A stretch of 58,714 nt of DNA from a virus. Lineage: Duplodnaviria; Caudoviricetes. Below, in pieces: positions 2,669 to 56,273 of the stretch. A program made the translations under genes and the position numbers. Within the stretch, counting starts at the first letter, position 1; the number at the start of each line of letters is the position of its first letter. The notes under the pieces are model-generated. The model worked only from the letters and a program-made list of their open reading frames with translations, was not told where the DNA came from and ran no database searches. The stretch covers positions 1-58,714 of IMG/VR virus record IMGVR_UViG_3300043399_000459; one strand, written 5' to 3'.

Positions 2669-2770
2669 GGCGGCTTCTCCCCCGTCCCGATTGTATGGCA
2701 GGCCCGCGAGAAGACTATCGGCTAGTTTTTCTCGCAGCCGCTTAATCAGTTCCTCGCTCATCTCATTCAC
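2339..2770 (-). CDS. DUF551-like protein
   Basis: WKPIGTAP...SHWMALPDAP signature. Confidence 0.75.
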   Translation of the reverse strand: MNEMSEELIKRLREKLADSLLAGLPYNRDGGEAADLIETQAREIEQWKVDYTEAALDVERLTKWKPIGTAPDDDWFLAAIEVRHKNGGHWWEYHVVWLDDETGDIHTDCEQGWSITDYSHWMALPDAPYPLNAARAALGESHD

Positions 2771-3038
2771 TCCTAATCCCAGCGCGATTGCTAACAGTGC
2801 CGTCGCCGTAGCCGTTGCCGTTGCCGTAGCCGTCGCCGTAGCCGTTGCCGTAGCCGTCGCCGTTGCCGTAGCCGTAGCCGTAGCCGTAGCCGTAGCCGTA
2901 GCCGTAGCCGTAGCCGTAGCCGTAGCCGTCGCCGTCGCCGTAGCCGTTGCCGTAGCCGTAGCCGTAGCCGTAGCCGTTGCCGTTGCCGTTGCCGTCGCCG
3001 TTGCCGTAGCCTATCGGCCTAAAGATAGTGGAGGCCAT
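2763..3038 (-). CDS. Gly-rich (G-Y/N/D)n repeat protein
   Basis: About 35 GX dipeptides; ATG overlaps the stop of the upstream gene (TGATG). Confidence 0.75.
   Translation of the reverse strand: MASTIFRPIGYGNGDGNGNGNGYGYGYGYGNGYGDGDGYGYGYGYGYGYGYGYGYGYGNGDGYGNGYGDGYGNGNGYGDGTVSNRAGIRSE
2799..3011. repeat. 6-bp tandem array (GCCGTN), about 35 units
   Basis: Directly visible. Confidence 0.95.
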
Positions 3039-3340
3039 CACAGCCCCCATCCATCTGGCACTGGAACACTAAACACTTCCGCGCCCTGTGGGATGTCAAC
3101 GTCTGCGATCTTGCGCAGGTCTGCCTTGGCCTTCTTCGGGTCATCAACGACGGCGGCAAAGCCGACGCCCGCCCAGCGGAAAACGTGCAGGGCATTGGCG
3201 AGATGGATACGTCCATTCTCGCGGGTCACGTCACCAGCGAAAATCCAGCCACGGTCCACCACGACAACAGCGCGGGTGCCGGTCGGCTTGCTGCTTGCGG
3301 GGATGTATTCAATTCCGTTCACGGTGATTTTGTCAGTCAT
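3038..3340 (-). CDS. DUF6948-like protein
   Basis: VVVVDRGWIFAG...LANALHVFRWAG motif, usually seen upstream of GY-repeat genes. Confidence 0.65.
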   Translation of the reverse strand: MTDKITVNGIEYIPASSKPTGTRAVVVVDRGWIFAGDVTRENGRIHLANALHVFRWAGVGFAAVVDDPKKAKADLRKIADVDIPQGAEVFSVPVPDGWGL

Positions 3341-5672: not shown

Positions 5673-5695
5673 GGTGTAAGTGCTCCTCGCGTGTA

Positions 5696-5737
5696 TTGCT
5701 GAGAAGCCCTACATAGCATGTACACCTGCGGTTGCAA
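5696..5737 (-). promoter_or_regulatory. Early promoter/leader motif, copy 3
   Basis: TTGCAA-N16-TATGTA-GGGCTTCTCAGCAA. Confidence 0.75.
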
Positions 5738-5799
5738 TAGATTTTTTTCATAGGCGGACGGACAAATTAAAAGCGCAGAAGGCGCATGTCTGTCCGGTG

Positions 5800-5828
5800 T
5801 TGCCGTGCGGCAGACAGACATGCTATAT
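5800..5828 (+). promoter_or_regulatory. Sigma70-type promoter for the AAA gene, overlapped by an inverted repeat
   Basis: TTGCCG-N17-CTATAT; CATGTCTGTC (5785-5794) / GACAGACATG (5813-5822) inverted repeat. Confidence 0.55.
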
Positions 5829-5856
5829 GGCGTCCGTCCTTAACACGGAGATTGAT

Positions 5857-6966
5857 ATGTGGACCGGAGATAGACTTGTATCCAACCCTTTGGTGGTGTT
5901 GCAGAATGCCGCAGAAACTAGGGACGTGCTGCGCGGCCTTGTGCCGGATAGGGGCATCACATGGCTGTATGGCTCGTCCATGAGCTTCAAGACGTTTGTC
6001 GCTATGTCGATGGCGGCGGCGATGTCCGACGAGCGCCCGTGGATGGGGCGCCAGACCGAGTCGGCGTTTGTGGTGTATCTTGGCGCAGAGGGCGGCAATG
6101 CGTTGCACATTCGGCGCGCTGCGGCGGAGTTGGATGCGGGGGCGTCCGGGCCGATGTACGTCGTGCAGGAGCGGCCTCAGCTTGACACGAGGTTCGGGGC
6201 TTTGCGTCTGCGCGGTATCCTTGCCGGGTTGACTGGCTTGTACCGCGGGGAGACGTACGAGGACATCGAGGAGGACGCGGTTTTCAGCGGCGCGTTTGCG
6301 AAATATGATGACGTCGGTGCGTGGGCGGAGGCGGACACGGCGGCGACTGTCGTGTGTTTCATTGACACGTACTCGCAGACGTCCGGCGGGGACGACAAGG
6401 CCAACGTGGCAGCCTACATCAAGAACCTTCGCGACTTGATTGACGCGGCTGCGCAGGAGGATTGGCGGCTGGCGTTTGTGGTGATCGACCACGCGACCAA
6501 GACTGGCGGGAGTTACATGGGCAGCGTCGCGAAGCTCAACGACGTGGACAGCCAAATTGAGGTGTTGCGCGCGTCCTCGGCCTACCGGGCTGTCCTGCAC
6601 CAGCGCAAGACGAAGGACGGCGTCGAGAGTAAGCCGCTAGACGTGGAGTTGGTACCCTTCGTGCTGGAGGGCTTCACAGACGCCTATGGGGACCCGCTCA
6701 GCACGTTGGTGGTCCGAGATGGCACCAAGGCCGCCCGGCTTGCTGAAGTCGCTGACGGGAAGGCTGGGGTGCTGCTCGGGCTGATCTTCAACCAAGGCGG
6801 CAGCGTGACGGACACCCAACTGCGTAGGCTGTTTGCGGAGGACAGCTCGAACGAGGGTATCAAGGCGGACAGCGTCAGCAAGGCGTATCGTCGATGCAAG
6901 GAAACCCTGCTCGACGGTGGCATGATTTCGGAGGCGGACGGGATCATCAACATCGGACACGGGTAG
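5857..6966 (+). CDS. RepA-like (AAA_25/SF4-type) helicase/ATPase, second copy
   Basis: LYGSSMSFKT Walker A, VYLGAEG, FIDT Walker B, IDHATK, RKTKDG; GGAG RBS before ATG 5857. Confidence 0.8.
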   Translation: MWTGDRLVSNPLVVLQNAAETRDVLRGLVPDRGITWLYGSSMSFKTFVAMSMAAAMSDERPWMGRQTESAFVVYLGAEGGNALHIRRAAAELDAGASGPMYVVQERPQLDTRFGALRLRGILAGLTGLYRGETYEDIEEDAVFSGAFAKYDDVGAWAEADTAATVVCFIDTYSQTSGGDDKANVAAYIKNLRDLIDAAAQEDWRLAFVVIDHATKTGGSYMGSVAKLNDVDSQIEVLRASSAYRAVLHQRKTKDGVESKPLDVELVPFVLEGFTDAYGDPLSTLVVRDGTKAARLAEVADGKAGVLLGLIFNQGGSVTDTQLRRLFAEDSSNEGIKADSVSKAYRRCKETLLDGGMISEADGIINIGHG

Positions 6967-46314: not shown

Positions 46315-46473
46315 TCAGTAGCTCCTCGGTGTCGGGTTCTTCTCCCACGACCACTTCTCCATCGCGCCGAGTTCGGCCCAAGGGAGGCGCGGCAGGACGG
46401 TGCCGTCGACGCGCGGGTGATAGAACGGCTTGCGGCGCACGTCCTCTTCGTAGGCAATCTGTCCGGGTGTCAT
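46315..46473 (-). CDS. Hypothetical protein (MTPGQIAYE)
   Basis: First gene after promoter copy 4. Confidence 0.7.
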   Translation of the reverse strand: MTPGQIAYEEDVRRKPFYHPRVDGTVLPRLPWAELGAMEKWSWEKNPTPRSY

Positions 46474-46487
46474 GTGAGGTACTCCGT

Positions 46488-46531
46488 GTTGCTGAGAAGC
46501 CCTAGCTATCGCATTCAACTGCACGTTGCAA
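46488..46531 (-). promoter_or_regulatory. Early promoter/leader motif, copy 4
   Basis: TTGCAA-N17-TAGCTA-GGGCTTCTCAGCAAC. Confidence 0.75.
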
Positions 46532-46534
46532 CCC

Positions 46535-46825
46535 CTATTTCAGGCCGTTGCGCACAATTTCCACGATCGCCTCGATGTCGGACATGTCCCGCGCCGTGAA
46601 GACCGGGATCCCCGCGTTCTGCATCCGCTCGACCTCCCGCTGCTGGAGCTTGCTGTAGCGGTCGTCCCCGGCCTTGATCTCGACGAACGCGGCGGCAGGC
46701 CAGTCCCACCAGATGTAGCAGTCAGGGCAGCCCCGGCGGCCCTCCCAGCGCACCTTGCGGTACTGGCCTCCGCTACCCTGCACCAGCTTCTTGAGGCGGT
46801 CCTGCAGCTTGCCTGCGGGGGTCAT
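46535..46825 (-). CDS. VRR-NUC nuclease
   Basis: GRRGCPD...FVEIKA...SKLQ. Confidence 0.85.
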   Translation of the reverse strand: MTPAGKLQDRLKKLVQGSGGQYRKVRWEGRRGCPDCYIWWDWPAAAFVEIKAGDDRYSKLQQREVERMQNAGIPVFTARDMSDIEAIVEIVRNGLK

Positions 46826-46950
46826 GCAAACGCCCACCGGATCCAAGCCACGCCCTTGGCGATCTCGACCACCAGTACCCACAGGATCAGGATCGCGACC
46901 GCCGCTACGCCAGCACAGCCCGTCAAAGTACTTTTGAGGTCTTCGTCCAT
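46822..46950 (-). CDS. 42-aa membrane peptide
   Basis: Hydrophobic stretch; AAGGA RBS; ATGA overlap. Confidence 0.55.
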   Translation of the reverse strand: MDEDLKSTLTGCAGVAAVAILILWVLVVEIAKGVAWIRWAFA

Positions 46951-46953
46951 TTC

Positions 46954-49900
46954 TCAGTCCTTGCGATAGCGATGGCACTCGAACCCTGTGGCCGCCAACG
47001 GCAGCCCCAGCGACCAACTCGGGTTCGTCGCCATCATGCCAGCCAACGCCTCCGCCGTGAAGTCCGGAGTGTCAGGCACCTCGCACACAAGCTCGTCGTG
47101 GACGCGCAGGACCACCGGATAGCCCGCCTGCTCGGCGCGGTAGAAGCCGACGAAGAACACGTCGCGGGCAGTAGCCTGCACAACATTCTCGCAGTTGTGC
47201 ACGATCATCGTGTCGCCGTTTTCGCCAGCCACCACAAACCTGCGAAGCGGCCCACTATTCACCAAATCGTAAACTTCCGCGATGTGTCGGGTGCCTCGAA
47301 CAGCCTGCTGTCCGGCACTCCGGTGTTCACTCGATAGTACAGCGTCGTCCGGTTCAGCCCCGATCGGTCTGCCGCTTCCGCAACTGTCATCCGGCCCCAT
47401 GGTGTGTTTATCGGTACGTTCGCCCGCCTGTTTCGGGCCTGCCTCGTGTACGTCGCCCAGACGCAGTTCTGCGGGCTGTATCCTGCGGAATTGTCGCGCC
47501 GCTCTAGCGTCAAGCCCTCCTTGTACGTCGGGCCCATGTCTGCCCAGAAGGCGGAGAAGGAGCGACGCCACTCTTCGCACACTTTGATACCGCGACCGCC
47601 GTAGTTTTTCCAAGCCTGATGCGTAGGCAGCGTGCAACGGTCGATCATGCTCCGCCAGACCGCAAAGGCCTTGTGGTGCGACATCCCGTGCGTCTTGCGC
47701 TTGGTCGATATGGTGTGCCGCTTCATGCACCCGCAGGACGCTTGCACGCCGCGCTTCTGCTGTTTTGTTATCTCGATCGCGGGGAGAATTATCTCTTTCC
47801 CGCATACGCAGCGGAGCGACCACAGTGATCGGCTGCCATCGCTGCCTTGGTAGATCAAAACCGTCAGGTATCCGAGTGTCTGCCCGCTCAAGTCCCTCGC
47901 TCTGTGATGCACGCACCCATCCTTCCGTAGACAGCACTTCATGGTCAGGCGTCATCCAAACGCCATTCAGACAGATTACCTCTTTAATACCCCTCCTGAC
48001 AAGACCCTCGTGCTCGACCCAAGCGCCCCCGTCCCAGAGCTTATGCGTTGTGCTGACATGTTCGATTGGCAGCCATCCGGCGTCTGTCAGTACTAGCGTC
48101 CCCTGTGCTAAGCACAGTTTGCCGTAGTATGTCTCCAGCCACTCCCACTTGCGCGTGAACTGGTTGACACCCTCGTAGAGGATCTTGCCGTCGTCGTTCA
48201 CGTGCATGTTGCGGTAGCATATGTAGCGGCCGCTCGGCAGCTTGCAGCGCACGTACATCGCGCCGTCTGGCCCCTCGCGGCGGTCGAACTGGACGTAGCC
48301 GCGCACGTCGTACGTGTCGCCCACCTCACCCCTGATCGCCTTGCGGCACGCCGCCTCGACGTCGTACCAGAAGGCCTTGGTCGCCGGGTGCGCCTTGCGC
48401 CAGCTCCAGACCACATCTTGCACCTCTTCATCGGACATAGCGTCAACACGAGTGCCGCCCATTTTGCGAAAGGCACCAACGGATCCACCAAATCCACAGT
48501 TATGGACTATCACCGGCCCTGCGTCAGTCAGGATCGCAAACCGATTTCGCGGCCCCACATTGGCAATGTCGTAGACGTTCTTCCAATTCGAGGATGCGGG
48601 CTTGTAGAACTGGGATGCGTCGACCGGGGTTACGATTGGCTCGCCGTCCGATGAAACGGAGATTACCCGGCTCGTAACCCCGGTCGACATCAATTCGATC
48701 AAGCTCGAGTTCTGGTCTATCCCAGCCATCAAGCGTGACAAGATACCTGAGAAAAGCTGCTCGATCTGTTCGCCACGGCTCAAAGACGCGGATGCCTCGA
48801 CTGCCGTAGTTGGTGTAGGCTTTGTCGTTCGGGTTGTGGCACCTGTTGAGGCAAGCGGAGATGCGATTGCACAAACGCCGTCTATGCTCGTCATCTGGGC
48901 ATACGTCTGCATAGCGGAACCACGCTTTTGTCCAACGCCCCGCTTTCTTTTTTGCGCAGCTATTGCAGCGGGTGCTGGCTCCGCGACGGATATTGTGGAT
49001 GTCGGTTCCGTACGGGCCTGCCCCGCAAGAACATTTAACAAGAACAGCTCTAAGTCCTCCGCGAGGGCCGAGATCAAAGCCAACGACTTCAAGCTCTCCG
49101 AACCTGTCGCCAATGCTTGGTCGCGGCAGTTCGGGAAGGTAGCGACCGTCTGGGCCGATTGCCAAGTCTCTCCGCACAAGATGAGATGATCCGGTGTTAT
49201 CTCCACTCCGTCTAGCTGGACGACTTGTCTCCGGCCTCGGTCCACTAGGCCTGTATTTGGCACCCACTCCACTCCGTCCCATAGCAAGTCCTCCGCTGTA
49301 ACCTCTGTAATCAGCTTTACGCCAGTTTTGGTAATAACGCGGGTACGGGGGCCTAGGCAAGCGAGTTCGGATACTTTTCCGGGGTTTTGCCGCTCGTCCT
49401 TCGTTATGTCGCCCGGATCCTTGCCGAGGATGCGCCCGGCGGTGACCTTGTAGAGGTCCGGCCCCTCGCCCCGGTCGTACGCCTTGAAGGCCTCGATCTT
49501 CCACTGCTCGCCCGCCAGCCACGCCAGCACGCGCCCCTCGATGTTCGACAGGTCTGCGATCACGAACTTCTTGCCCGGCTCGGCCACGAGGCAGCCGCGC
49601 ACGGCCATGGAGCAGCGCTCGCTGACATTGCCCCACAGGATGTCGTCGCAGTCCGCCTTGAACGCCGCGACGGTCATCTCCTGTACGTCGCCGTCGAACC
49701 AGTCGGGTGTCCTAGGTAAATTTTGCGGCTGGAAAATACGACCCGCGTCCCTGAGAGTACGTGATGCGCCGCCGTACTGCACGGTTCCCCTAAGCCGCCC
49801 GTCACTCGACACTGCGCCGAGCAAAGCCTTGTACTTCGACGGGCTGGTGGCTGCCGCCTGCTGGCGCATCTTGAGCAGCTTGCGCACCTCTGCGGGCAGC

Positions 49901-50703
49901 TCACCGGCAAGCAGCTTCCCGACGTCGTCCTTGGTCAGGCCCTCGGCGTTGACGCCCAGCTCCGCCATGCGGGCGAGGAGCGCGTTGCGCTGCGTGGTCG
50001 AGCCCAGAGCGCCGCCGGTCAGAAGGGCGGTAGCGTCGGCCAGAGATCGAGAAGCTCGTTCAAAAGCTCGGAGAGCGGATCGGGCGAGTTCTCGGTCGAC
50101 GGCGATACCACTGTCAGAAGTTCTTTGGTCGAGTAGCCAGAACTGGCGCTCAGCCCGATTACAATTCCAATCCGGCAGCCGTCGATATACGGATCGCATC
50201 GCGTCCACATCGAGGCGGGCGTATTCGATGAACCTTTCCCACTCATCCGGGTGCGTCTCCCGCGTAGCTCTGCGAAGCTTCTGGTTCTTGGGCCGGGGCT
50301 TCGAGAACAGTTGTATCAGCTTCTTGCCGTCCTTGTCCTTAGCCTTGTCGGTAGGCACCTCGAGGACGTCACAGAGTTGACCCAGAGACGCAGGCAGCGC
50401 GTGTTGGAGCGCAATTACCATGGTGTCCGTGATTTTATCCACAGGAATATGCACGCCGCGGTGGCGCAGCACGGTGCGGTCAAAGGCGCTGTTGTGGATC
50501 ACGACCTCGTCCGCCGTGTCGATCATGAGCTGCACTGGACCCTTGGCGGCCTGCCAGTCGTCGCTCGTGTCAAGCACCGTCACAGGCTCGTCGTCCCACG
50601 CGTACGCCACCAGCAAGATCTCGGCGTCCTCGGCATAGCGGTGCGCGCCGTGCTTGATGGGGGTGTCGGAGTAGGTCTCGAGGTCAAGATACAGTGTAGA
50701 CAA
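46954..50703 (-). CDS. Family A DNA polymerase precursor with two inteins (about 655 aa mature)
   Basis: LDLET exonuclease motif, HNSAFD, QPQNLPR, DLSNIEGR (motif A), RQ..GKVSEL (motif B), VHDE (motif C). Confidence 0.95.
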   Translation of the reverse strand: MSTLYLDLETYSDTPIKHGAHRYAEDAEILLVAYAWDDEPVTVLDTSDDWQAAKGPVQLMIDTADEVVIHNSAFDRTVLRHRGVHIPVDKITDTMVIALQHALPASLGQLCDVLEVPTDKAKDKDGKKLIQLFSKPRPKNQKLRRATRETHPDEWERFIEYARLDVDAMRSVYRRLPDWNCNRAERQFWLLDQRTSDSGIAVDRELARSALRAFERASRSLADATALLTGGALGSTTQRNALLARMAELGVNAEGLTKDDVGKLLAGELPAEVRKLLKMRQQAAATSPSKYKALLGAVSSDGRLRGTVQYGGASRTLRDAGRIFQPQNLPRTPDWFDGDVQEMTVAAFKADCDDILWGNVSERCSMAVRGCLVAEPGKKFVIADLSNIEGRVLAWLAGEQWKIEAFKAYDRGEGPDLYKVTAGRILGKDPGDITKDERQNPGKVSELACLGPRTRVITKTGVKLITEVTAEDLLWDGVEWVPNTGLVDRGRRQVVQLDGVEITPDHLILCGETWQSAQTVATFPNCRDQALATGSESLKSLALISALAEDLELFLLNVLAGQARTEPTSTISVAEPAPAAIAAQKRKRGVGQKRGSAMQTYAQMTSIDGVCAIASPLASTGATTRTTKPTPTTAVEASASLSRGEQIEQLFSGILSRLMAGIDQNSSLIELMSTGVTSRVISVSSDGEPIVTPVDASQFYKPASSNWKNVYDIANVGPRNRFAILTDAGPVIVHNCGFGGSVGAFRKMGGTRVDAMSDEEVQDVVWSWRKAHPATKAFWYDVEAACRKAIRGEVGDTYDVRGYVQFDRREGPDGAMYVRCKLPSGRYICYRNMHVNDDGKILYEGVNQFTRKWEWLETYYGKLCLAQGTLVLTDAGWLPIEHVSTTHKLWDGGAWVEHEGLVRRGIKEVICLNGVWMTPDHEVLSTEGWVRASQSEGLERADTRIPDGFDLPRQRWQPITVVAPLRMRERDNSPRDRDNKTAEARRASVLRVHEAAHHIDQAQDARDVAPQGLCGLAEHDRPLHAAYASGLEKLRRSRYQSVRRVASLLLRLLGRHGPDVQGGLDARAARQFRRIQPAELRLGDVHEAGPKQAGERTDKHTMGPDDSCGSGRPIGAEPDDAVLSSEHRSAGQQAVRGTRHIAEVYDLVNSGPLRRFVVAGENGDTMIVHNCENVVQATARDVFFVGFYRAEQAGYPVVLRVHDELVCEVPDTPDFTAEALAGMMATNPSWSLGLPLAATGFECHRYRKD
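47194..48114 (-). mobile_element. Intein 2 in DNA polymerase (307 aa)
   Basis: YGKL|CLAQGT...TPDH...VYDL...IVHN|CENVVQ. Confidence 0.92.
47259..47912 (-). CDS. HNH homing endonuclease in the +1 frame inside intein 2
   Basis: CVCG...SCGC...HGMS...WRSMIDRC...YGGRGIKVCEEW...LERRDNSAGYSPQNCVWAT...Q.RNRR plus HTH; AAGGA 7 nt before GTG 47912. Confidence 0.85.
   Translation of the reverse strand: MHHRARDLSGQTLGYLTVLIYQGSDGSRSLWSLRCVCGKEIILPAIEITKQQKRGVQASCGCMKRHTISTKRKTHGMSHHKAFAVWRSMIDRCTLPTHQAWKNYGGRGIKVCEEWRRSFSAFWADMGPTYKEGLTLERRDNSAGYSPQNCVWATYTRQARNRRANVPINTPWGRMTVAEAADRSGLNRTTLYYRVNTGVPDSRLFEAPDTSRKFTIW
48499..49359 (-). mobile_element. Intein 1 in DNA polymerase motif B (287 aa)
   Basis: SELA|CLGPRT...TPDH...VYDI...IVHN|CGFGG. 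Confidence 0.92.
48524..49282 (-). CDS. HNH homing endonuclease in the +2 frame inside intein 1 (start ATG 49282 or TTG 49165)
   Basis: GDRFGELEV...CSCG...CNSC...RCHNP...NYGSRGI...LDRIDVDRGYEPGNLRF; GGAGG before 49282 and GGAG before 49165. Confidence 0.82.
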   Translation of the reverse strand: MGRSGVGAKYRPSGPRPETSRPARRSGDNTGSSHLVRRDLAIGPDGRYLPELPRPSIGDRFGELEVVGFDLGPRGGLRAVLVKCSCGAGPYGTDIHNIRRGASTRCNSCAKKKAGRWTKAWFRYADVCPDDEHRRRLCNRISACLNRCHNPNDKAYTNYGSRGIRVFEPWRTDRAAFLRYLVTLDGWDRPELELDRIDVDRGYEPGNLRFIGRRANRNPGRRIPVLQARILELEERLRHCQCGAAKSVCDPD

Positions 50704-50706
50704 GAA

Positions 50707-50827
50707 AGCCCTCCTCTTTTGGAGAGGCGCGCAGCGGTTTCAGCAACACGAGGAGACCCCACGTTCCGCTGCGCACCTCACCAAAAGGGAGGGCTGCCGG
50801 TCCCAAGGCAGCAGGGACCGACAGCCC
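50707..50827 (-). promoter_or_regulatory. Structured polymerase leader: long RBS-sequestering hairpin plus a competing hairpin
   Basis: Arms 50707-50737 and 50766-50795 (about 28 bp); second stem 50791-50804 / 50814-50827 competes for GGGCT. Confidence 0.75.
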
Positions 50828-50838
50828 AAGGTATAGCG

Positions 50839-51093
50839 TCAGATAAGGTCCATGCCAAGCTCATCCGCGTAAAGGTTCAGGATAGCGTTGCGCTCCCTGA
50901 GATCGTCCGGCTTCAGCTTCCTGAGCCGCACGATTTCACGCATGATCTTGGCGTCGTATCCGACCGCCTTGGCCTCTGCGTAGACGTCCTTGACGTCGTC
51001 GGCGATGGCCTTCTTCTCCTCCTCCAGCCGCTCTACTCGCTCCACGAGCAGCCGGAGGCGGTCGTTCGCCGTGCTTTCGCGCCCCGTACTCAC
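50839..51093 (-). CDS. GapR/DUF2312 DNA-binding protein
   Basis: LRLLVERVERLEEEKKAIADDVKDVYAEAKAVGYD. Confidence 0.9.
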   Translation of the reverse strand: MSTGRESTANDRLRLLVERVERLEEEKKAIADDVKDVYAEAKAVGYDAKIMREIVRLRKLKPDDLRERNAILNLYADELGMDLI

Positions 51094-51674
51094 AGGATGT
51101 CATCCGCTTCAGCCTTGGCCTTCGCCAGCCCGGAGAACTCATCGGCACTGGCCGGTGACGACCCGCCGCCGAAGTTCTCACCCTCGCCAGTCAGCATAAT
51201 GCCGCGCAGCGAGCAGTTGATGCGGCGCCCCCATTTGTTGTCTTGGGCCCAGATCTCGACCGAGGCGTTGACCTTGGCCCCGCTGAACGCTTGGCGCTCG
51301 ATGTCGCCCTTGCCAGACAGCCCTTCGCCGTATTGGTTATAGACGCTGGGCTGGGTCTTGGCGTTGCGCGCGGACAGGTAGTGCGTGCCCTCAAAGCCCT
51401 GATACGCCTCGCCAGTCTTCTTCGAACGGTAGACCTTCTTGGCGAAGGCAACCTTGCCGTCTTCGATCAGCATGCCGAGGGTGGCGTCGGCTTTGTCCTT
51501 CCACGCCTCCTTGGCCTCTACCTTCATGGCGTCCTCAATGAGCTTCTGGTGCTCGCTGTTGGGCACGATCGGGAACTTGGCCCCGTATGCGGGCTCGCCT
51601 TCGCCGAAAGACTGCGGCTCGGCCAGAGCCGGAAAAGCCATCGTGACGCCCTTAAGCATGATCCTAGTAGCCAT
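51090..51674 (-). CDS. ssDNA-binding protein (DUF2815-like)
   Basis: AFPALAEP...YG...FSGA.VNA...WAQDN..G.RINCSL; acidic tail. Confidence 0.85.
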   Translation of the reverse strand: MATRIMLKGVTMAFPALAEPQSFGEGEPAYGAKFPIVPNSEHQKLIEDAMKVEAKEAWKDKADATLGMLIEDGKVAFAKKVYRSKKTGEAYQGFEGTHYLSARNAKTQPSVYNQYGEGLSGKGDIERQAFSGAKVNASVEIWAQDNKWGRRINCSLRGIMLTGEGENFGGGSSPASADEFSGLAKAKAEADDIL

Positions 51675-51692
51675 ATGTCAATTATCCACTTC

Positions 51693-52934
51693 TCAGTTTT
51701 CAGTCTTGAAAAGACCAGCGAAGTCATCGCTGGCCGATGGGACGGCAATTTCTTGCCGCCTGTCAGTGACCGGAGCCACAGACGGCTTTCCGGCAGACTG
51801 GGTGATGAGGCCCTGCGCCTTCTCCCAGCGTGCCGAAGTCAGAAGCTTCTCAGCCTTGGTCGGGCTGATCAGCGAATAGTCATACATCTCCTCGTGCTTC
51901 AGGCGGAACGACTTAAAGAGCTTCTCCACCGCCTTGTCGTCACTCCACTTGCGCGCGCCGCGCTTGCCGGTGACCAGCTTGAAGCCCTCGACGGGTTTGC
52001 CTGCCAGCAGGCGGCGCTCGACCTCTGCGCGCACGCCCTTGCACCAGTCCTCGACCAGCCCGACTTTGGCCATGGCGATCGACAGGTAGTTGTCGCCCGT
52101 CTGGCTGTCCGGCACCTCCGGCAGGAACTGCGCGAAGTCCTCGGCGGTCGCGACGGACGATCCGCCCACGACTTCGGTGACCTCCGCACGCAGCGCCGGG
52201 CACGCCGCCTTGGCCTTGCAGAAGCGGCACTGCTTCTCGCCGGGGTTCAGGTACATCCAGTCGAGCTTGTCGTTCTGGGCAAGCACGTCCTGCGCGTCTC
52301 TGGCGATGTTGGCCGCCGCGCGCGCCTCTAAGCCGAACTCCTCCAACTGCGCGACCGGGATGCTCCACTCGCTCACGTGGTTCAGCCGCGGCTGGTGGAT
52401 CAGCATCGTGACGTAGGAGAAGTCCGAGATCAGGCCATACTCGTGCAGCGCGCCGAGGGCGTACATCTGCGTCTGCTCGTTGTCCTCAGCCAGCACCTGC
52501 ACGCCCATGCCGTACTTCAGGTCGATGACCTCGATCGCCTCTTGATCGTAGTCGATGATCACGGCGTCGCTCGTGCCGGTCGCGCCCTCCTCGCCCGTGA
52601 TGTGGCCGATCGGCAGCTTCTGTTCGACTAGCAGCGTCTTGCCCGCCGCGCGCTCGCGGACCAGCTTGACGTAGTCGTCGACGTGCGCCGCCATGTCAGG
52701 CGTGACGGGCCACGAGACGCGCTTGCCGTGGTCGTCGAACTCGATGTCGCGGCCGACGTAGTCACGCGCGGCGCTGTCAGGGTCGTTGAGGACCCGCGCC
52801 GCCAACTCGTGCGCCGCGGTGCCCTCGCGGGCGTAGCTGCTGCTCGTGTCGGGTATGCCCTCCGACAGCGCGACGCTGCCGGGGCACGCCATCCACCTAG
52901 AGGCCCCCGAGGGGCTGAGCTTGGCGTGCGCCAT
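51693..52934 (-). CDS. DUF2800 Cas4-like PD-(D/E)xK nuclease
   Basis: HAKLSPS...WMACPGS, GTAAHE, GTSD, IDLKYG, QCRFC..K..C. Confidence 0.88.
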   Translation of the reverse strand: MAHAKLSPSGASRWMACPGSVALSEGIPDTSSSYAREGTAAHELAARVLNDPDSAARDYVGRDIEFDDHGKRVSWPVTPDMAAHVDDYVKLVRERAAGKTLLVEQKLPIGHITGEEGATGTSDAVIIDYDQEAIEVIDLKYGMGVQVLAEDNEQTQMYALGALHEYGLISDFSYVTMLIHQPRLNHVSEWSIPVAQLEEFGLEARAAANIARDAQDVLAQNDKLDWMYLNPGEKQCRFCKAKAACPALRAEVTEVVGGSSVATAEDFAQFLPEVPDSQTGDNYLSIAMAKVGLVEDWCKGVRAEVERRLLAGKPVEGFKLVTGKRGARKWSDDKAVEKLFKSFRLKHEEMYDYSLISPTKAEKLLTSARWEKAQGLITQSAGKPSVAPVTDRRQEIAVPSASDDFAGLFKTEN

Positions 52935-53383
52935 TAGAGGGCGTCCGACAGGGCGTTGCACAGCTCCGGCCAGCGGGCCTCGTCGACCTCAGAGGCGCGC
53001 GCCGCGCCGAACTGGCTGAGGATCTCGATGGCGACGTCCTTGCCCTTCTCCTTGGCCACGCGCAGCACCAGAGGCGTGACGTCCTTGTCGAAGTCGAGAA
53101 CAGGCGCGTCTGGCTCAGAAGGGGCAGGCGCACTTTCCACAGTCGGCGTATCCGGCTCGCTGCTCAAAGTCGCTGAGGGGGCCTCCACAGTCGACGCAGG
53201 TGGCGCGTTTCCCGCCTCTTCCTTCTTCGCCTTGGCGGCCTTCGGCTTGGCGGGAGCCGCGTCGCGGATCTCAGGCATCACAGGGTCGGACGGCGCCGCG
53301 GTGTGGAACTGGCTGGCCATGGCCAGAAGCTTGCCGCCCAGCTCGCTCATGGTGTCGGCGGTAATCTCAATACGGTAGGTCAT
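52934..53383 (-). CDS. Hypothetical protein (usual DUF2800 neighbour)
   Basis: Pro/Ala linker; ILSQFGA...SEV C-terminal domain. Confidence 0.75.
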   Translation of the reverse strand: MTYRIEITADTMSELGGKLLAMASQFHTAAPSDPVMPEIRDAAPAKPKAAKAKKEEAGNAPPASTVEAPSATLSSEPDTPTVESAPAPSEPDAPVLDFDKDVTPLVLRVAKEKGKDVAIEILSQFGAARASEVDEARWPELCNALSDAL

Positions 53384-53396
53384 GTCTTCTCCTCTG

Positions 53397-53606
53397 TCAG
53401 GCTGTGCGCCACACGCGGCCGACGTCGCCGGTCGTGCGTGTCACGAAATTGCAGCCGGGGTTGCGGCGCTTTAAGTTGTTAATGGTGATGCGGACATTCT
53501 GAAGCTTATCAAGAGGCAGCACGAAGCTGTCTCCGACCTCCATCACCTTCAGGGGGTAGTTCTCGCGCGTCGCCGGCATAGGCACATTCTTCTCGATCAC
53601 GTACAT
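53397..53606 (-). CDS. Small DNA-binding protein (DUF7303-like)
   Basis: IEKNVPMP...YPL..MEVGDSF...RVWR. Confidence 0.75.
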   Translation of the reverse strand: MYVIEKNVPMPATRENYPLKVMEVGDSFVLPLDKLQNVRITINNLKRRNPGCNFVTRTTGDVGRVWRTA

Positions 53607-53619
53607 GTCAAGCTCCTCC

Positions 53620-53799
53620 TCAGAAGTTCCAGCAGGTGGCAGAATAGCGCTTGGCGATATCACGCGCCTCGCGCTTGCCGCTTACGTTGAAGCCGAGCAC
53701 CTTGGTGCGGCGACCGTCGATGATCCGGTTCAGGATCACCGTGGCCCCAGACCTACTGGTCCGGGGATAGAACTCGGCGGCGAGGATGTTGCAGATCAT
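53620..53799 (-). CDS. 59-aa hypothetical protein
   Basis: Hand-translated; ends ATCWNF. Confidence 0.6.
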   Translation of the reverse strand: MICNILAAEFYPRTSRSGATVILNRIIDGRRTKVLGFNVSGKREARDIAKRYSATCWNF

Positions 53800-53809
53800 G
53801 CCGGCCCCC

Positions 53810-54121
53810 TTACGCCTTGCGAGCCACGACCTTGAGGGTCGTGTAGCCCTTAGTGACCTTCTGGTTCTTGCTGAACCAGCGGCCGTCTACACCCAACTCG
53901 CGCAGCTTGGCCTCGGCGGCCTTGACGTCGAGCGACTGGCGCTCCGCGACTTCCGAGACAGATGCGCGGAAGGTGTCGCCGTCGTGCGCGCCAACGCCGA
54001 GGGCCTTGATCTCCTCGATCAGGAAAGCCTCGATGTCCTTGAGGCGGGCGATCTCGGCCTTGACGTCGCCGAGGCGATCGACGGGCGAGACATTTGCGAT
54101 AAAGGTGGGTGCAGTTGCCAT
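53810..54121 (-). CDS. Hypothetical protein
   Basis: First gene after promoter copy 5; GAGGA RBS. Confidence 0.8.
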   Translation of the reverse strand: MATAPTFIANVSPVDRLGDVKAEIARLKDIEAFLIEEIKALGVGAHDGDTFRASVSEVAERQSLDVKAAEAKLRELGVDGRWFSKNQKVTKGYTTLKVVARKA

Positions 54122-54142
54122 GGTAGAGTTCCTCGTATGTGT

Positions 54143-54185
54143 GTTGCTGAGAAGCCCCAGTTAGCAGTTACACGGTAGGTTGCAA
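54143..54185 (-). promoter_or_regulatory. Early promoter/leader motif, copy 5
   Basis: TTGCAA-N16-TAACTG-GGGCTTCTCAGCAAC. Confidence 0.75.
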
Positions 54186-54230
54186 TCCCCTATTTGCAAA
54201 AGTTTGCAAAAAGATTGTATGCGCCTGTAA

Positions 54231-56273
54231 TCACTCGTAGAAAATTACGCTGCCACCCGTCAGTTTGAGCGGCCCGTCCGGCTCGCGGCTGATCTTCTGC
54301 ACGGCGCGCATGACCGTCTGGCGGCGCGTGTCGCGCTTGTCCGGGTCGGGTGCGGGCATCGTGTCGACGGCGGTGCGGATGAGGCGCTCAAGCGACACAG
54401 CGTCGTCCTTGCCGAACGTCGCCATGGTCTCGATGACGTGCGTCTCGATGGCGCCGCGGCGCTTGACGCCCTTGCGGTCGCCCTCGACCTGCTGGGCCGG
54501 CTCGGCCTCAAGCACGACGCAGCTCGTGATGTCGTCGCCGTCGTCGTCCAAGCCGAGCACGACGGTGTCGAGCTTGAACGGCCACTGCAGGCCGTCCGTG
54601 CCGTCCTTCTGCTTCGTCAGCTTGATCTGCCGGTAGTTCGTGTCCAAGTCGCGGCTGACCTCCAGCTCGGCGTCTACGGCCGCCTTGATGCCCGACCAGC
54701 CGCGCGAGCCGCGCGCGAGATCCTTGCCGGCGTGGTGGACCAGCTCGACCGTCGCGTCCGTCGCCGTGCTGATCGTGCGGCAGTGCGACAGTGCTAGGCC
54801 CATGTCCTCGCCGGCGTTCTCGTTGGCGCCGGGTGTCACCTGCGCGAAGGTGTCGATGATGATGAGCGCGATGTCGTTGATCGTCTTGAGGGCCGCGATC
54901 AGTTCGGTGACGTCCTCCTGCTCGAGTAGGTTGGGGGGCACGGTGATCAGGCCGATGTCGAGCACTGCCGGGTCCACACCGTAATGCTGGCAGGCGGCCA
55001 GTATGCGATTGCCGTACCCCCCGGCGCCCTCGGCCGCGACGATCACAACCTTACCGCGACGCGTCTTGTGACCACGCCACGGCGTCCCCTGTGCGATCGC
55101 CAGCGCCATGTCGAGGGCGACGAAACTCTTGCCCGAGCCGCTTGCCCCATAGAGCAGGATCAAGTCGGCGGCGGGCAGCACGCCCTTGATCAGCCAGTCG
55201 ACCGGCTTGCGCCGGGTGGCCGTCAGGGCGGTGCTGATGGGAAACTTGCCCGCGTATCCTGCGGGCGTCTGTACGCCGAGAGCTGGCTCAAGGTCCGCCA
55301 CCATCGCCTCGGCGCGTTCGATGATGGCGGCGCTCCCCTGCGCCTGCTGCGCCTCCTTGACCATCTTCAGCACGCTGGCCATGGTCACCTGCCTACGGCG
55401 TGTGCCTGCCCGGCGGTCGAAGCCCTCCCACTGGGCGCGTAGCGCCTCCTCGGACGGGTACTTGCCGCCCTGCTCTGACCAGTCGTTCCAGACATCGAAG
55501 CCCTCTTCGGCTCCGTCCGTCTCATGGTGGATGGCCATGCCGACCCGTATCCAGCCGTCGCGGTCCATGTCGGCGTCGAGCTGGCTGACCTTGTCGGCGA
55601 TCTCCTCCAGCGAGAGGCCGATCTTCGGCTCATGCCCGAGCATGAAGTCGTCGGGGTCGACCGGCGCCGGGCCTTCGCCTGCGAAGCGGGTGCGGCAGTA
55701 GTCGATGACGCGGGCGGGCAGGGGCGCAACGCGGTCCTCCCAGCCCATCAGGTCGATGTGGTCGAGCATCCAGCCGGTGACGGTGACGAAGCCGTTCGAG
55801 CTGAACACCTCGGCTCCGAAGCGCTCGGCCGTGGCGGCAGACTTGCGGTTGCCGAGGATGTCGGCCGCGCCAGTGAAGAAGGCACGCACGCCTGCGCCGC
55901 TGGGCGACAACTCGGCATAGGTGCCCTGCACGAGGTCCAGCACGGCGTCGTCGACCTTGCCGTCCACGACGCAGTGGTCGAAGTCGAGGGCGACGATGCC
56001 CGCGTCGGGCGTCAGGGCGAAGCCCACGCCGTCGAGGCCGCGCCGGGCTGCCGCCTCACGCGCGACGGCGAAGGTGGTCAGCTTGGCCAGATCCGACGGC
56101 GAGCCCTGCTGGCCGTAGCGCCTGCCGCCCATGCTGTACTGCGGCACCTTGCGGGGCTTGGCCTCGCCCTCGTGCTGCTCGTAGGCCCACGTGAGCCAGA
56201 GCGGCACGTCCCGCAGCGGCGCAGGGACGTGGATGTCGCGAATGTTGGGCGAAATACGTTGCACGGCGCTCAT
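54231..56273 (-). CDS. Primase-polymerase / PriCT / AAA (RepA-like) helicase fusion
   Basis: ALDFDHC, ELSPSGAG, WIRVGMAIH, YGASGSGKS, IIDT, HHAGK...RGWS. Confidence 0.9.
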   Translation of the reverse strand: MSAVQRISPNIRDIHVPAPLRDVPLWLTWAYEQHEGEAKPRKVPQYSMGGRRYGQQGSPSDLAKLTTFAVAREAAARRGLDGVGFALTPDAGIVALDFDHCVVDGKVDDAVLDLVQGTYAELSPSGAGVRAFFTGAADILGNRKSAATAERFGAEVFSSNGFVTVTGWMLDHIDLMGWEDRVAPLPARVIDYCRTRFAGEGPAPVDPDDFMLGHEPKIGLSLEEIADKVSQLDADMDRDGWIRVGMAIHHETDGAEEGFDVWNDWSEQGGKYPSEEALRAQWEGFDRRAGTRRRQVTMASVLKMVKEAQQAQGSAAIIERAEAMVADLEPALGVQTPAGYAGKFPISTALTATRRKPVDWLIKGVLPAADLILLYGASGSGKSFVALDMALAIAQGTPWRGHKTRRGKVVIVAAEGAGGYGNRILAACQHYGVDPAVLDIGLITVPPNLLEQEDVTELIAALKTINDIALIIIDTFAQVTPGANENAGEDMGLALSHCRTISTATDATVELVHHAGKDLARGSRGWSGIKAAVDAELEVSRDLDTNYRQIKLTKQKDGTDGLQWPFKLDTVVLGLDDDGDDITSCVVLEAEPAQQVEGDRKGVKRRGAIETHVIETMATFGKDDAVSLERLIRTAVDTMPAPDPDKRDTRRQTVMRAVQKISREPDGPLKLTGGSVIFYE

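Follow-up and report, generated by a model that had tools for sequence, protein, structure and literature searches.

A conserved hairpin before the DNA polymerase gene of an uncultured phage clade presents a loop complementary to shared operon leaders

Introduction

In lytic phages, the timing of gene expression is commonly attributed to promoters, to sigma and anti-sigma factors, and to a small number of RNA-binding proteins or nucleases. The window analysed here (the whole 58,714-nt stretch of the viral record IMGVR_UViG_3300043399_000459, Caudoviricetes) raises the question of whether an RNA hairpin takes part in such control. Two adjoining hairpins lie on its minus strand at 50707-50827, 5' of a family-A DNA polymerase gene that starts with TTG, and a first-pass annotation had described the loop of the larger one as antisense to a leader shared by five repeated promoters. 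That annotation offered two readings: either a processed antisense RNA blocks the Shine-Dalgarno (SD) sequences of the early mRNAs, or early leaders open the stem and license polymerase translation in the manner of a natural toehold switch. Does the loop act on the leaders, do the leaders act on the loop, or does the resemblance have another origin?

Results

A stable hairpin covers the Shine-Dalgarno sequence of the polymerase gene

Hairpin 1 (50791..50827, minus strand) is made up of a 14-bp G+C-rich stem (5' arm 50827-50814, 3' arm 50804-50791) and a 9-nt loop (50813-50805), and is followed by UCCCUUUUGG. Hairpin 2 (50707..50795, minus strand) is built from a 5' arm (50795-50766), a 28-nt apical segment with the sequence AACGUGGGGUCUCCUCGUGUUGCUGAAA (50738..50765) and a 3' arm (50737-50707), within which lies the polymerase SD sequence GAGGAGGG (50709..50716). 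Its stem comprises about 29 bp (the first-pass annotation had counted about 28) with one bulged A, one U.U and one G.U, and it ranked first among the 9 inverted repeats listed for the whole window. The apex has the layout CUCC-N4-GUUGCUGA, with the anti-SD tetramer CUCC at 50755-50752 and the 8-nt anti-leader core GUUGCUGA at 50747-50740. The pentamer AGCCC (50795-50791) is common to both hairpins in the window, in agreement with the earlier suggestion that hairpin 1 competes for the base of hairpin 2.

The 156-nt module region folds with a minimum free energy (MFE) of -86.7 kcal/mol, compared with -55.2 +/- 4.1 kcal/mol for 200 dinucleotide shuffles (z = -7.77; 0/200 as good). In the MFE structure of the window part of the apex pairs with itself, AACGUGGGG with CCUCGUGUU, forming 9 bp including three G.U pairs and leaving GCUGAAA unpaired; the 28-nt loop of the first-pass annotation is thus not fully open. 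The mean unpaired probability is 0.63 for the anti-leader core and 0.25 for the SD tetramer in the window, the latter falling to 0.02 over 30 sequences. As expected of an SD-sequestering attenuator, the SD is paired in a stable stem and this pairing has been kept in evolution. With about 29 bp, plus the 9-bp apical helix predicted in the window, hairpin 2 would also be long enough for RNase III (at least about 20 bp of nearly unbroken dsRNA).

Since contigs from other studies match the module, its sequence is not an assembly artefact: a contig from another study's run is identical to the window over 50689-50839, and contigs of two further studies cover 50610-50782 with 1 difference and 50560-50758 with 2 differences. 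A search of the whole window against Rfam at gathering thresholds returned 0 matches, including none to c4; when 50600-50950 was ranked by E-value, the best hit was Atu_C6/EcpR1 with 20.5 bits against a gathering threshold of 60 (E = 0.78), so the module is not a member of that family. RNA sequencing runs containing 46400-54300 were sought and none matched. The possibility that plus-strand TCAGCAAC marks a promoter or gene start on the opposite strand was rejected, as no TTGCAA-type -35/-10 lies upstream of it and no start codon follows the SD-like GAGGAG.

The hairpin apex is the colinear complement of five operon leaders

The leader motif TCAGCAAC occurs 10 times in the window compared with 1.74 expected, a number reached in 0/100 shuffles. 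Six of the copies stand behind minus-strand TTGCAAC promoter-like repeats and are followed by GGAG and ATG (core coordinates 4458, 18, 58569, 54143 and 46488), and a further, seventh promoter copy carries TCAGCAAT at 5695. Because the ends of the window repeat each other (163 nt, 1 mismatch), copies 18 and 58569 are one site, which brings the distinct TTGCAA-type promoters with a leader to five, as the first-pass annotation had stated; the five leader strings that it quoted are also correct.

The apex CUCC-N4-GUUGCUGA is the colinear complement of UCAGCAAC...GGAG behind all five of these promoters, the leader pattern that it matches being A/C-UCAGCAAC-N0-9-GGAG. The position of CUCC 5' of the core mirrors the core-then-GGAG order of the leaders, an order unfit for the translation initiation region (TIR) of the module itself. 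Promoters and leaders are all of class A and all on the minus strand, and the accessibility-corrected net energies of their pairing with the loop range from -10.5 to -15.2 kcal/mol. P1 (5670..5737) has the core UCAGCAAU at 5702-5695, in which a U would give a G.U pair with the loop, and an ATG at 5672 (-15.2 kcal/mol); in P2 (4433..4500; core 4465-4458, ATG 4435; -15.1 kcal/mol) both UCAGCAACACG and GGAGAC match the loop complement, but with 7 extra nt between them. P3 (58555..58611; core 58576-58569, ATG 58557; -11.6 kcal/mol) recurs at 4-60. P4 (54119..54185; -12.7 kcal/mol), which heads the operon running towards the hairpins, reads TTGCAAC, then UCAGCAAC (54150-54143), GAGGA and ATG (54121), and P5 (46471..46531; core 46495-46488, ATG 46473; -10.5 kcal/mol) offers 11 nt of contiguous complement. 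When the first cistrons behind the five leaders were compared with PHROGs, one family of unknown function was found and nothing else.

Shuffled controls gave accessibility-corrected energies of about 0, and for each of the five leaders 0/60 shuffles were as low. Among relatives, 31/33 leaders fell below all 40 shuffles, with a median of -16.8. A raw duplex scan of the 28-nt apex against 29,338 windows on both strands (mean -18.6, sd 4.0) gave poor separation in this genome of 64% G+C: three leaders were the 4th, 12th and 20th of the non-overlapping hits and two were outside the top 25, which speaks against action in trans. Accessibility-corrected energies with shuffled controls were adopted for this reason.

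The longest complement between leader and hairpin lay wholly inside the apical region in 38/39 comparisons, and the remaining one touches the top pair only. Leader binding alone can therefore not unzip the SD stem, and with the long stem left untouched in 38/39 cases the toehold-switch reading is not supported. Nor is the loop a cis-encoded antisense RNA, as the loop (50740) and all five leaders (4458, 5695, 46488, 54143 and 58569) are on the minus strand at different loci. The loop does have a conserved, accessible seed, and its complementarity to the target initiation regions is conserved and, in one lineage with both partners seen, compensated, as would be expected of a trans-acting seed RNA.

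Loop, stem and leaders have been conserved together

The two-hairpin module was found in 29 further distinct sequences from uncultured relatives with polymerases 60-73% identical, and the colinear complement, anti-leader core plus anti-SD, was kept in every one of them. Over the resulting 30 sequences hairpin 2 has 26 consensus pairs, 19 of which changed on both sides; 92.1% of the cells of the module alignment are paired (98.3% for helix 1) compared with 36-52% in slid controls, and there are 23 double-change pairs versus 7.0 in shuffles (0/500 as high). This covariation supports the stem that the first-pass annotation had placed over the SD before the TTG start. Some G.U pairs would read A.C on the other strand, among them a conserved one in the apical helix (23/29 rows), and so point to a sense-strand RNA. 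A hairpin abutting hairpin 2 folded in 28/30 module sequences with unrelated stem sequences; of the other two, L001 is an exception with a deletion, and L019 was left out of the count through a wrong boundary setting, the adjoining hairpin being seen in its sequence.

The loop core GUUG[C/U]UGA is invariant in 30/30 aligned sequences while loop flanks and stems diverge, and its mean unpaired probability over them is 0.66. CUCC precedes the core in all 30, separated from it by a linker that varies (GCAGGAG, GAAGGGAG, ACGAGGAG, GAUAGGAGG and others). When the core was left free in the search pattern, 42 true hairpins were obtained, 41 with GTTGCTGA and 1 with GTTGTTGA. In 71 leader-loop pairs, 70 cores were Watson-Crick and 1 was a wobble, with a contiguous match of 7-16 nt (median 10).

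One lineage has changed both partners: in L013/L075, 3/3 leaders carry UCAACAAC and the loop carries GUUGUUGA, a compensatory change in trans that can pass through a G.U intermediate. L077 shows the same loop change with a separate origin on the polymerase tree. Conversely, the loop motif and the leader motif are both missing from L015 and L090, although L090 retains both hairpins, hairpin 2 having a loop of 12 nt. The co-conservation of loop and leader that the first-pass annotation had made decisive is therefore present, being compensated in one lineage and co-absent in two relatives. Two counts weigh against action in trans: there is only one compensatory event with both partners observed, and 4/67 distinct leaders have an uncompensated single change in the core, 1 of the 4 being wobble-compatible. 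Caulobacter phage RW, the closest isolate, lacks the anti-leader loop; it has a short SD-covering hairpin and different leaders. Viral contigs were also scanned for the variant leader TTGCAA-N27-32-ATCAACAAC; at least 119 stretches carry it, and no matching hairpin was present among the matches listed.

The module lies between a GapR-like gene and the polymerase gene and probably has its own promoter

The polymerase gene (46954..50703, minus strand; DNA_pol_A, 9.4e-13) encodes 1249 aa with two intein-like inserts and is 56% identical to the polymerase of Caulobacter phage RW. Its TTG start (50703-50701) is credible because the N-terminus, MSTLYLDLETY, agrees with those of the relatives. Directly upstream of the module lies a gene for a GapR-like DNA-binding protein (50839..51093, minus strand; Pfam GapR_DNA-bd, 4.7e-31), whose last codons and stop (TGA, 50841-50839) are overlapped by a promoter-like motif at 50830..50858 on the same strand, TTGGCA (50858-50853) and TATACC (50835-50830) separated by a 17-nt spacer. 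TTGGC[AT]-N17-TA[TA]NNN occurs in 25/29 module sequences, with a 17-nt spacer every time. The -35-like TTGGCA is held by conserved C-terminal codons of the GapR-like protein (LGMDL[IL] read in relatives), and the -10 box is non-coding DNA, near-invariant in the alignment of relatives. The conserved TTGGCA-N17-TATAnn suggests that the polymerase module has a promoter of its own, from which transcription is predicted to start at the first bases of hairpin 1. A consensus promoter scan with an E. coli-type rule picked out neither TTGGCA-N17-TATACC nor the TTGCAA promoters and is for that reason neutral on both. A sigma-54 reading of TTGGCATGGATCTGCT was rejected against the consensus, the GG-to-GC spacing being one base short and the GC not being conserved in L018 and L023.

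Hairpin 1 was listed first among the terminator-like sites of a consensus scan. It may serve as a terminator-like site behind the upstream operon or else stabilise, as 5'-terminal structure, a transcript from the promoter-like motif. It is probably more than a terminator, and a separate promoter for the polymerase module is likely.

About half of the relatives carry, between hairpin and polymerase gene, a gene for a 97-99-aa helix-turn-helix (HTH) protein. The small HTH protein was considered as a putative DNA-binding partner and discarded, as no homologue of its gene is present in the window (best tblastn E = 1.5). Scans of 10 proteins of the replication region and of 10 small early proteins likewise revealed neither a sigma factor nor a repressor.

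Discussion

A candidate anti-leader loop that acts in trans

The region is best explained as a conserved structured leader RNA before the polymerase cistron, or, in about half of the relatives, before the small HTH gene and then the polymerase gene. Because related phages keep the pairing of loop and leader, the hairpin probably serves the phage as an RNA device for timing its genes. The reading that we prefer, tentatively and with confidence that stops a little short of an even judgement, is that an antisense loop borne on a 5' UTR represses the first cistrons of the leader-bearing operons. Directly observed are a covarying fold, a complementarity that has been conserved and in one case compensated, and the co-absence of loop and leader motifs. 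From these we infer where the transcripts end, how they are processed, and when, in which direction and with which sign regulation acts, as follows. Transcription would begin at the sigma-70-like promoter TTGGCA-N17-TATAnn and yield an RNA with a G+C-rich hairpin at or near its 5' end, followed by the SD-burying hairpin of about 29 bp. The apex would offer its largely unpaired core GUUGCUGA, beside CUCC, to the 5'-terminal leader and SD of every operon with a TTGCAA promoter, and pairing in trans would keep 30S subunits off the first cistrons and might also attract RNase III. As polymerase-leader RNA builds up, the leader-bearing operons would be turned down, and an RNase III cut in the long stem would expose the polymerase SD and, at the same time, set loose the apical stem-loop, which would then be a small antisense RNA. 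The direct effect would be limited to the first cistron of each operon, which counts against this scheme, as does the partial self-pairing of the anti-leader in the window.

An opposite direction of control, which we hold to be unlikely, would have abundant leader mRNAs bind the loop, displace a cis pairing of the loop with the spacer and start codon, and so raise translation behind the hairpin (an anti-antisense switch). Such a cis partner is found in 21/30 sequences, where 9-11 nt of the loop (UGCUGAUA[C/A]..) are complementary to the bases that immediately precede the start codon and to its A (in each, 0/200 shuffles as long). The two sides vary together, a GAUAA loop being accompanied by UUAUC in 5/5 cases and a GAUAC loop by GUAUC in 14, and the GAUAA variant is found in two starred clades that lie apart on the polymerase tree; the covarying sites are, however, at most about 50 nt apart, and recombination could carry both. 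Cis and trans pairings are mutually exclusive since the partners use overlapping loop bases, GCUGAU, and in those 21/30 sequences the cis partner is at least as compatible with this reversed control as with trans repression. It is nevertheless absent from 9/30 sequences, including L004, L012, L075, L077, L086, L119 and the window, where the best cis match has 4 nt and 121/200 shuffles are as long. On the MAFFT alignment, the loop-spacer helix (helix 3) has 76.9% of cells paired, and the SD lies in a stem of about 29 bp that leader binding cannot open (38/39 comparisons).

The near-invariance of the core despite repeated change of the stems could equally reflect a constraint on the DNA at promoter positions +1 to +9. 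In its full form, this alternative makes TCAGCAAC an operator in duplex DNA, recognised by a regulator of phage or host origin and placed at +1 to +9 of the promoters and inverted in the polymerase leader, with RNA complementarity as a by-product. A duplex site can be read in either orientation, an identical 8-bp block is conserved in both contexts, strong invariance of the core suits protein contact, and a regulator of changed specificity would shift all copies together, as is seen in L013. We nonetheless regard it as distinctly improbable: it leaves unexplained why every loop keeps CUCC at a leader-like distance and in leader-like order despite the varying linker, and why the site lies unpaired at the tip of a hairpin whose G.U pairs speak for the sense RNA. 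The HTH gene is also absent from the window, and no sigma factor or repressor was among the proteins scanned.

More doubtful still is that the element is an ordinary SD-masking attenuator, or an RNase III site or mRNA stabiliser between cistrons of the kind known from T7 and the lambda N leader, in which the resemblance of the loop has no function. The compensation of all three leaders by the loop change in L013, the joint absence of loop and leader motifs from two relatives and the invariance of the core amid changing loop bases and stems speak against it, and gene conversion over a patch of 8-17 nt with unlike flanks would be an unlikely source of such a pattern. What it explains well is that the two-hairpin, SD-covering architecture predates the anti-leader loop, given that Caulobacter phage RW and L090 have short unrelated loops, and a stem this long could plausibly be cut by RNase III. 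That the invariant loop is a protein-binding translational operator, bound by the polymerase in the manner of T4/RB69 gene 43 or by some other RNA-binding protein, is hardly credible: a conserved hairpin with an invariant loop does overlap the TIR of a phage polymerase gene, and autogenous control by gp43 is established in T4 (PMC3014915), but the polymerase here is of family A and not of the T4 type, the adjacency of the gp43 type fails in the roughly half of the relatives in which a 97-99-aa HTH gene separates hairpin and polymerase gene, and the complementarity to the leaders would be left unaccounted for.

Comparison with known regulatory RNAs

The trans-acting anti-leader loop that we prefer resembles IS10 RNA-OUT/RNA-IN in that a hairpin loop faces the 5' end of its target, pairing extends over the ribosome-binding site, and the loop has a YUNR-type turn (CUGA here, UUGA in L013). 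In IS10, the loop of a long imperfect hairpin, RNA-OUT, meets the extreme 5' end of RNA-IN and the duplex continues over the ribosome-binding site; RNA-OUT comes from the strand opposite its single target and is fully complementary to it over about 35 nt. The phage regulator, in contrast, would be part of an mRNA leader, is encoded on the same strand as its five targets and kilobases from them, and matches them only in a core of 8-16 nt and the anti-SD. Like the RNase III sites and SD-masking leaders of T7 early mRNAs and the leader of lambda N, hairpin 2 is long, imperfect and intercistronic, keeps its internal mismatches and stands beside an SD. By analogy, cleavage of the present hairpin could unmask translation and leave a stabilising end, whereas its conserved anti-leader loop sets it apart from those hairpins, which are not known to have a conserved loop complementary to other messages. 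Activators of the DsrA-rpoS type and synthetic toehold switches rely on a trigger that pairs with the SD-masking strand. They share with the module an SD held in a hairpin and a second RNA that complements part of that hairpin, but here the complementarity is confined to the apex in 38/39 comparisons. Alphaproteobacterial small RNAs with anti-SD loops expose a C/U-rich motif of this kind, and the module is likewise a two-hairpin RNA with a loop-borne anti-SD, its match to the family Atu_C6/EcpR1 being sub-threshold only.

Among phage systems, c4 of P1/P7 uses short complementary loop sequences that pair around the ribosome-binding site of a same-strand transcript and block its translation; its single target region, ant, belongs to the operon of c4 itself, and its role is in immunity (PMC12197685). 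On that description, both are phage RNAs with a loop-borne complement to a ribosome-binding region, and the present element differs in lying in a lytic-type replication module, in burying the SD of the next gene and in facing the leaders of several operons. In T4, RegB and RegA inactivate many early messages at initiation regions containing GGAG, and this processing stimulates DNA polymerase synthesis (PMC3014915). To that extent the analogy is functional, a shut-off of early translation at the SD tied to polymerase synthesis; RegB and RegA are proteins, whereas here the specificity would lie in an RNA loop that reads a leader word and the SD. A literature search found no paper on the present element, which does not prove its absence from print, and the words promoter, hairpin, stem-loop, inverted repeat and intein are each absent from the text of the Riverwalkvirus paper PMC11053796.

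In the proposed reading, a shared 5'-terminal leader word gives specificity to a whole class of messages and is read by a single loop in the polymerase leader. A broader version, to be held with slightly more reserve than trans repression itself, is that one RNA may serve as a global switch in this uncultured phage clade: with a dedicated promoter and a universal anti-leader apex reading the 8-nt 5' word plus SD, it would turn down all leader-bearing operons, and in most members competition between leaders and cis partner would feed back on translation of the polymerase module. If true, phages would have an RNA-based means of shutting off, or feeding back on, a whole class of messages, comparable to T4 RegB/RegA but made of RNA, with shared 5' leaders as an address label for post-transcriptional control. 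The system would also provide a natural, compact and orthogonal leader/anti-leader pair, with a G-C to A-U specificity variant, for reuse as a tool, and would mean that regulatory RNAs recognisable by trans covariation alone exist in the genomes of uncultured freshwater and soil phages.

A search of genome contigs returned one contig identical to the window, in a metagenome-assembled genome (MAG) labelled Chloroflexota, and a 71%-identity fragment in a MAG labelled Bacteroidia with no hairpin in its 417 upstream nt; both labels were set aside for host assignment. The host setting appears to be alphaproteobacterial, as indicated by the GapR-like gene.

Two conserved hairpins precede the DNA polymerase gene

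The family-A DNA polymerase gene (1249 aa, TTG start at 50703, minus strand) follows two hairpins on the same strand: hairpin 1 (50827–50791; 14-bp stem, 9-nt loop) and hairpin 2 (50795–50707; about 29 bp with one bulged A, one U.U and one G.U). The Shine-Dalgarno sequence (SD; GAGGAGGG, 50716–50709, minus strand) is contained in the 3' arm of hairpin 2, with 5 nt between it and the TTG, confirming the SD-covering stem reported in the first-pass annotation. The apical 28 nt (50765–50738, minus strand) read AACGUGGGGUCUCCUCGUGUUGCUGAAA, as described there, but are not wholly an open loop: they are partly self-paired in a 9-bp helix with three G.U pairs that leaves GCUGAAA free. The 156-nt region folds at -86.7 kcal/mol versus -55.2 ± 4.1 in shuffles (z -7.77, 0/200) and includes the top-ranked inverted repeat of those reported for the window. 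Since one contig from a run of another study matches the window exactly over 50689–50839, the palindrome is no assembly artefact. A contig from a wastewater run carries T>A at 50720 (plus strand), corresponding in the RNA to A>U within hairpin 2's 3' arm, where it would give a U.U mismatch; the contig stops short of the partner base.

A search with the polymerase N-terminus yielded 65 viral, 70 metagenomic and 6 genome-collection loci, and the module recurs among relatives with 60–73% polymerase identity in the order GapR-like gene end, TATA-like box, hairpin 1, hairpin 2 (with the SD within its 3' arm), start codon. Covariation in related phages, raised in the first-pass annotation, is present: in an alignment of 30 distinct module versions, RNAalifold found 26 consensus pairs, and compensatory double changes occur in 19 of these. 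By an explicit count over the same sequences, 92.1% of cells were paired (36–52% in a control with slid partners) and 23 pairs showed changes on both sides, versus 7.0 ± 1.7 in shuffles (0/500), a shuffle comparison that overstates independence because the sequences are related. Hairpin 1 folded in 28 of the 30 sequences, with quite different stem sequences. We are almost certain that the RNA structure is real.

Just upstream of hairpin 1, the motif TTGGC[A/T]-N17-TA[T/A]NNN was found in 25/29 sequences, always with a 17-nt spacer; among the exceptions, the relatives' contigs L074 and L075 show TTGGAA and TTGGAT, respectively, as fitting variants, L001 has a deletion, and L086 gives an ambiguous picture. 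The -35 overlaps conserved Leu/Ile-Gly codons, and the -10, in non-coding DNA, hardly varies, in contrast to the adjoining sequence of hairpin 1. Judging from this motif, the module probably has its own promoter. Hairpin 1, called terminator-like by a consensus scan, may end upstream transcripts and also cap the new one. In about half of the relatives, hairpin 2 is separated from the polymerase gene by a 97–99-aa HTH gene that overlaps the polymerase start (L001:5705–6004, L007:5705–6004, L004:5540–5833, L070:1–180), so that the module would control whichever cistron comes next; no homologue of this gene was found in the window. 'Adjacent' and 'separated' (HTH gene between) states are interspersed on the polymerase tree, suggesting that the gene was repeatedly gained, lost or exchanged.

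The loop of hairpin 2 is complementary to the leaders of repeated promoters

The window contains five distinct minus-strand promoter-like repeats (P1–P5), putatively 'early', whose leader strings had been quoted correctly in the first-pass annotation. Their layout is TTGCAAC-N..-[-10 region]-GGGCTTC-TCAGCAA[C/T]-N0-14-GGAG-N-ATG, and TCAGCAAC is over-represented in the window (10 copies versus 1.74 expected); because the window ends repeat, P3 is double-counted in motif searches. In relatives, these repeats take the form TTGCAA-N17-[c/t]A[t/c][t/a]A[g/t]-N5-7-A-TCAGCAAC-[g/a]..GGAG..ATG, and 67 distinct promoter contexts comprised 61 with the exact core, two with UCAACAAC and four with a single other change. 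From the spacing to the -10 region, the likely +1 is the invariant A just before the core (C in four of the five window leaders), which would make the core the 5'-terminal word of the leader mRNAs. In relatives' promoters of this class (e.g. L008:2217–2260), a second TTGCAT lies about 13 nt after TTGCAA, a direct repeat inside the spacer with the window counterparts TTGAAC/TGTAAC.

In the loop of hairpin 2, the 8-nt core GUUG[C/U]UGA is invariant in 30/30 module versions while the stems and the remaining apex diverge; in the window it is 63% unpaired in the ensemble. The anti-SD CUCC stands 1–8 nt 5' of the core in all 30, across varying linkers (UGC, CUUC, UCGU, UUCCUUUC, UAUC, CGC, UUCUC, GGC). 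When collections were scanned for the flanks alone, the core being left free, 49 loci were returned; 42 of them are true hairpins, 41 with GTTGCTGA and one with GTTGTTGA. The order CUCC-then-core mirrors core-then-GGAG in the leaders, and does not suit pairing with the SD and spacer of the module itself.

The proposal that the loop is antisense to the leaders was borne out in 71 leader–loop pairs, whose cores were Watson-Crick in 70 and wobble in one, with contiguous matches of 7–16 nt (median 10). Comparison with shuffled leaders agreed: the accessibility-corrected net energies of the window's five leaders were -10.5 to -15.2 kcal/mol, with shuffles at about 0 ± 3–4 (0/60 as low for each), and across 19 relatives 31 of 33 leaders fell below all 40 shuffles (median -16.8 versus -1.3 ± 3.4). 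In the complement of the window loop (UCAGCAACACGAGGAG), the 'AC' after the core is common to four of its five own leaders; in most relatives, G follows the core in loop and leaders alike.

Loop and leaders are also co-conserved. In L013 (= L075 = L303) both are altered together, the loop to GUUGUUGA and 3/3 leaders to AUCAACAAC, one of which matches the loop's complement across 16 uninterrupted nt, SD included; this G-C to A-U switch can pass via a G.U intermediate (loop C to U first). L077 shares the loop change yet falls outside the 23-row clade with L075 (100/98 support), so the change happened twice; its leaders are not on the 2.6-kb contig, and both partners are visible in one compensated lineage only. 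Two relatives, L015 and L090, lack the loop motif as well as any UCA[G/A]CAA[C/U] leader. In L090, hairpin 1 persists and hairpin 2 still covers the SD, but the loop of the latter is an unrelated one of 12 nt, and the single recognisable leader is UUAGCAAAU; in phage RW, the hairpin over the SD is short, its loop has 3 nt, and the leaders differ. These hairpins argue that the SD-masking hairpin is the older part and the anti-leader apex an addition travelling with the leader word. On balance, we consider it fairly likely that the loop–leader pairing is functional.

Proposed mode of action

As a whole we tentatively favour a chain, its transcript points all inferred from sequence, in which the antisense loop, borne in a 5' UTR, would pair with the 5' end and SD of leader-bearing mRNAs and lower translation of their first cistrons; RNase III could plausibly cut the long stem, unmasking the polymerase SD and releasing the apex. 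The IS10 RNA-OUT loop acts against the 5' end of RNA-IN, and this system is among the closest in working to the present loop. So is the c4 antisense RNA of P1/P7 (PMC12197685). The present element, part of an mRNA leader, is encoded in trans on the same strand as its several targets. T4 RegB/RegA offers a functional parallel, early-message inactivation at GGAG going with stimulated polymerase synthesis (PMC3014915). No Rfam family matches the module, a literature search found no publication on the element, and the paper on the nearest isolates (PMC11053796) mentions neither promoters nor hairpins.

The other idea of the first-pass annotation, a toehold switch in which leaders open the stem and license polymerase translation, is not supported as regards stem opening, the longest leader–hairpin match being wholly apical in 38/39 comparisons. 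In 21/30 sequences, however, the bases just before the start codon, together with its A, find a complement of 9–11 nt in the loop's 3' part (UGCUGAUA[C/A]..; 0/200 shuffles each); no such partner near the start codon was found in the other 9/30, the window among them. The cis partners covary, loop GAUAA occurring with UUAUC (5/5) and GAUAC with GUAUC (in 14, plus two near-matches), and GAUAA appears in two separate starred clades of the polymerase tree. Because cis and trans pairings use overlapping loop bases, they would compete in those phages, which keeps leader action on the hairpin alive in modified form, although we think it rather unlikely. The conserved anti-SD and the strand-specific G.U pairs both count against an orientation-free DNA operator, which is more doubtful still. 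That the hairpin is an ordinary attenuator or RNase III site whose loop is incidental seems very improbable, and a protein operator of the gp43 kind the most far-fetched.

Genome context

The complete phage record (about 58.7 kb, 63.6% G+C) carries a 163-nt direct repeat at its ends (1–163/58552–58714; one mismatch, at position 36), indicating a circularly permuted or terminally redundant genome. Replication and early-type genes occupy the minus strand between 5737 and ~44248, counting down across the record's ends, and large ORFs the plus strand at ~7054–44208. The minus-strand genes upstream of the module are, in order, a C-5 methylase, a primase-helicase (PriCT_2 + AAA_25), three small ORFs, a DUF2800/PD-(D/E)XK nuclease and an Enc34-type ssDNA-binding protein, and directly upstream of the module lies a GapR-like DNA-binding protein gene (84 aa, 50839–51093, minus strand; Pfam GapR_DNA-bd, 4.7e-31), in a position kept in relatives. 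This phage-encoded nucleoid-protein homologue hints at an alphaproteobacterial host. The closest isolates are the Caulobacter phages RW, RLK, KcrB and GB2A (56% identity over the polymerase N-terminus). Two genome-collection entries, L305 (58,672 nt; polymerase N-terminus of 460 aa 100% identical to the window's; MAG labelled Chloroflexota) and L306 (71% identity; MAG labelled Bacteroidia), probably represent phage contigs that were binned together with unrelated bacteria, and give no evidence of host.

The first large plus-strand ORF (428 aa, 5680–6966), which diverges from promoter P1, looks by eye like a candidate RecA/DnaB-like ATPase. A minus-strand ORF at ~2763–3050, rich in Gly-Tyr/Gly-Asn/Gly-Asp dipeptides (GYGYGY...) and with (AV)n in the opposite frame, resembles a tandem repeat of short period, located in the early region. 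The polymerase contains two minus-strand inserts of about 290–310 aa (48499–49359, aa 449–735; 47194–48114, aa 864–1170), which start with Cys (CLGPRT.. and CLAQGT.., respectively) and end in ..VHN followed by Cys; they are intein-like in these boundary motifs, and Pfam gave no Hint/intein match (E <= 0.01). Within the first insert lies a perfect 17-bp inverted repeat with a 36-nt spacer (48619–48688), the second-ranked of those reported for the window.
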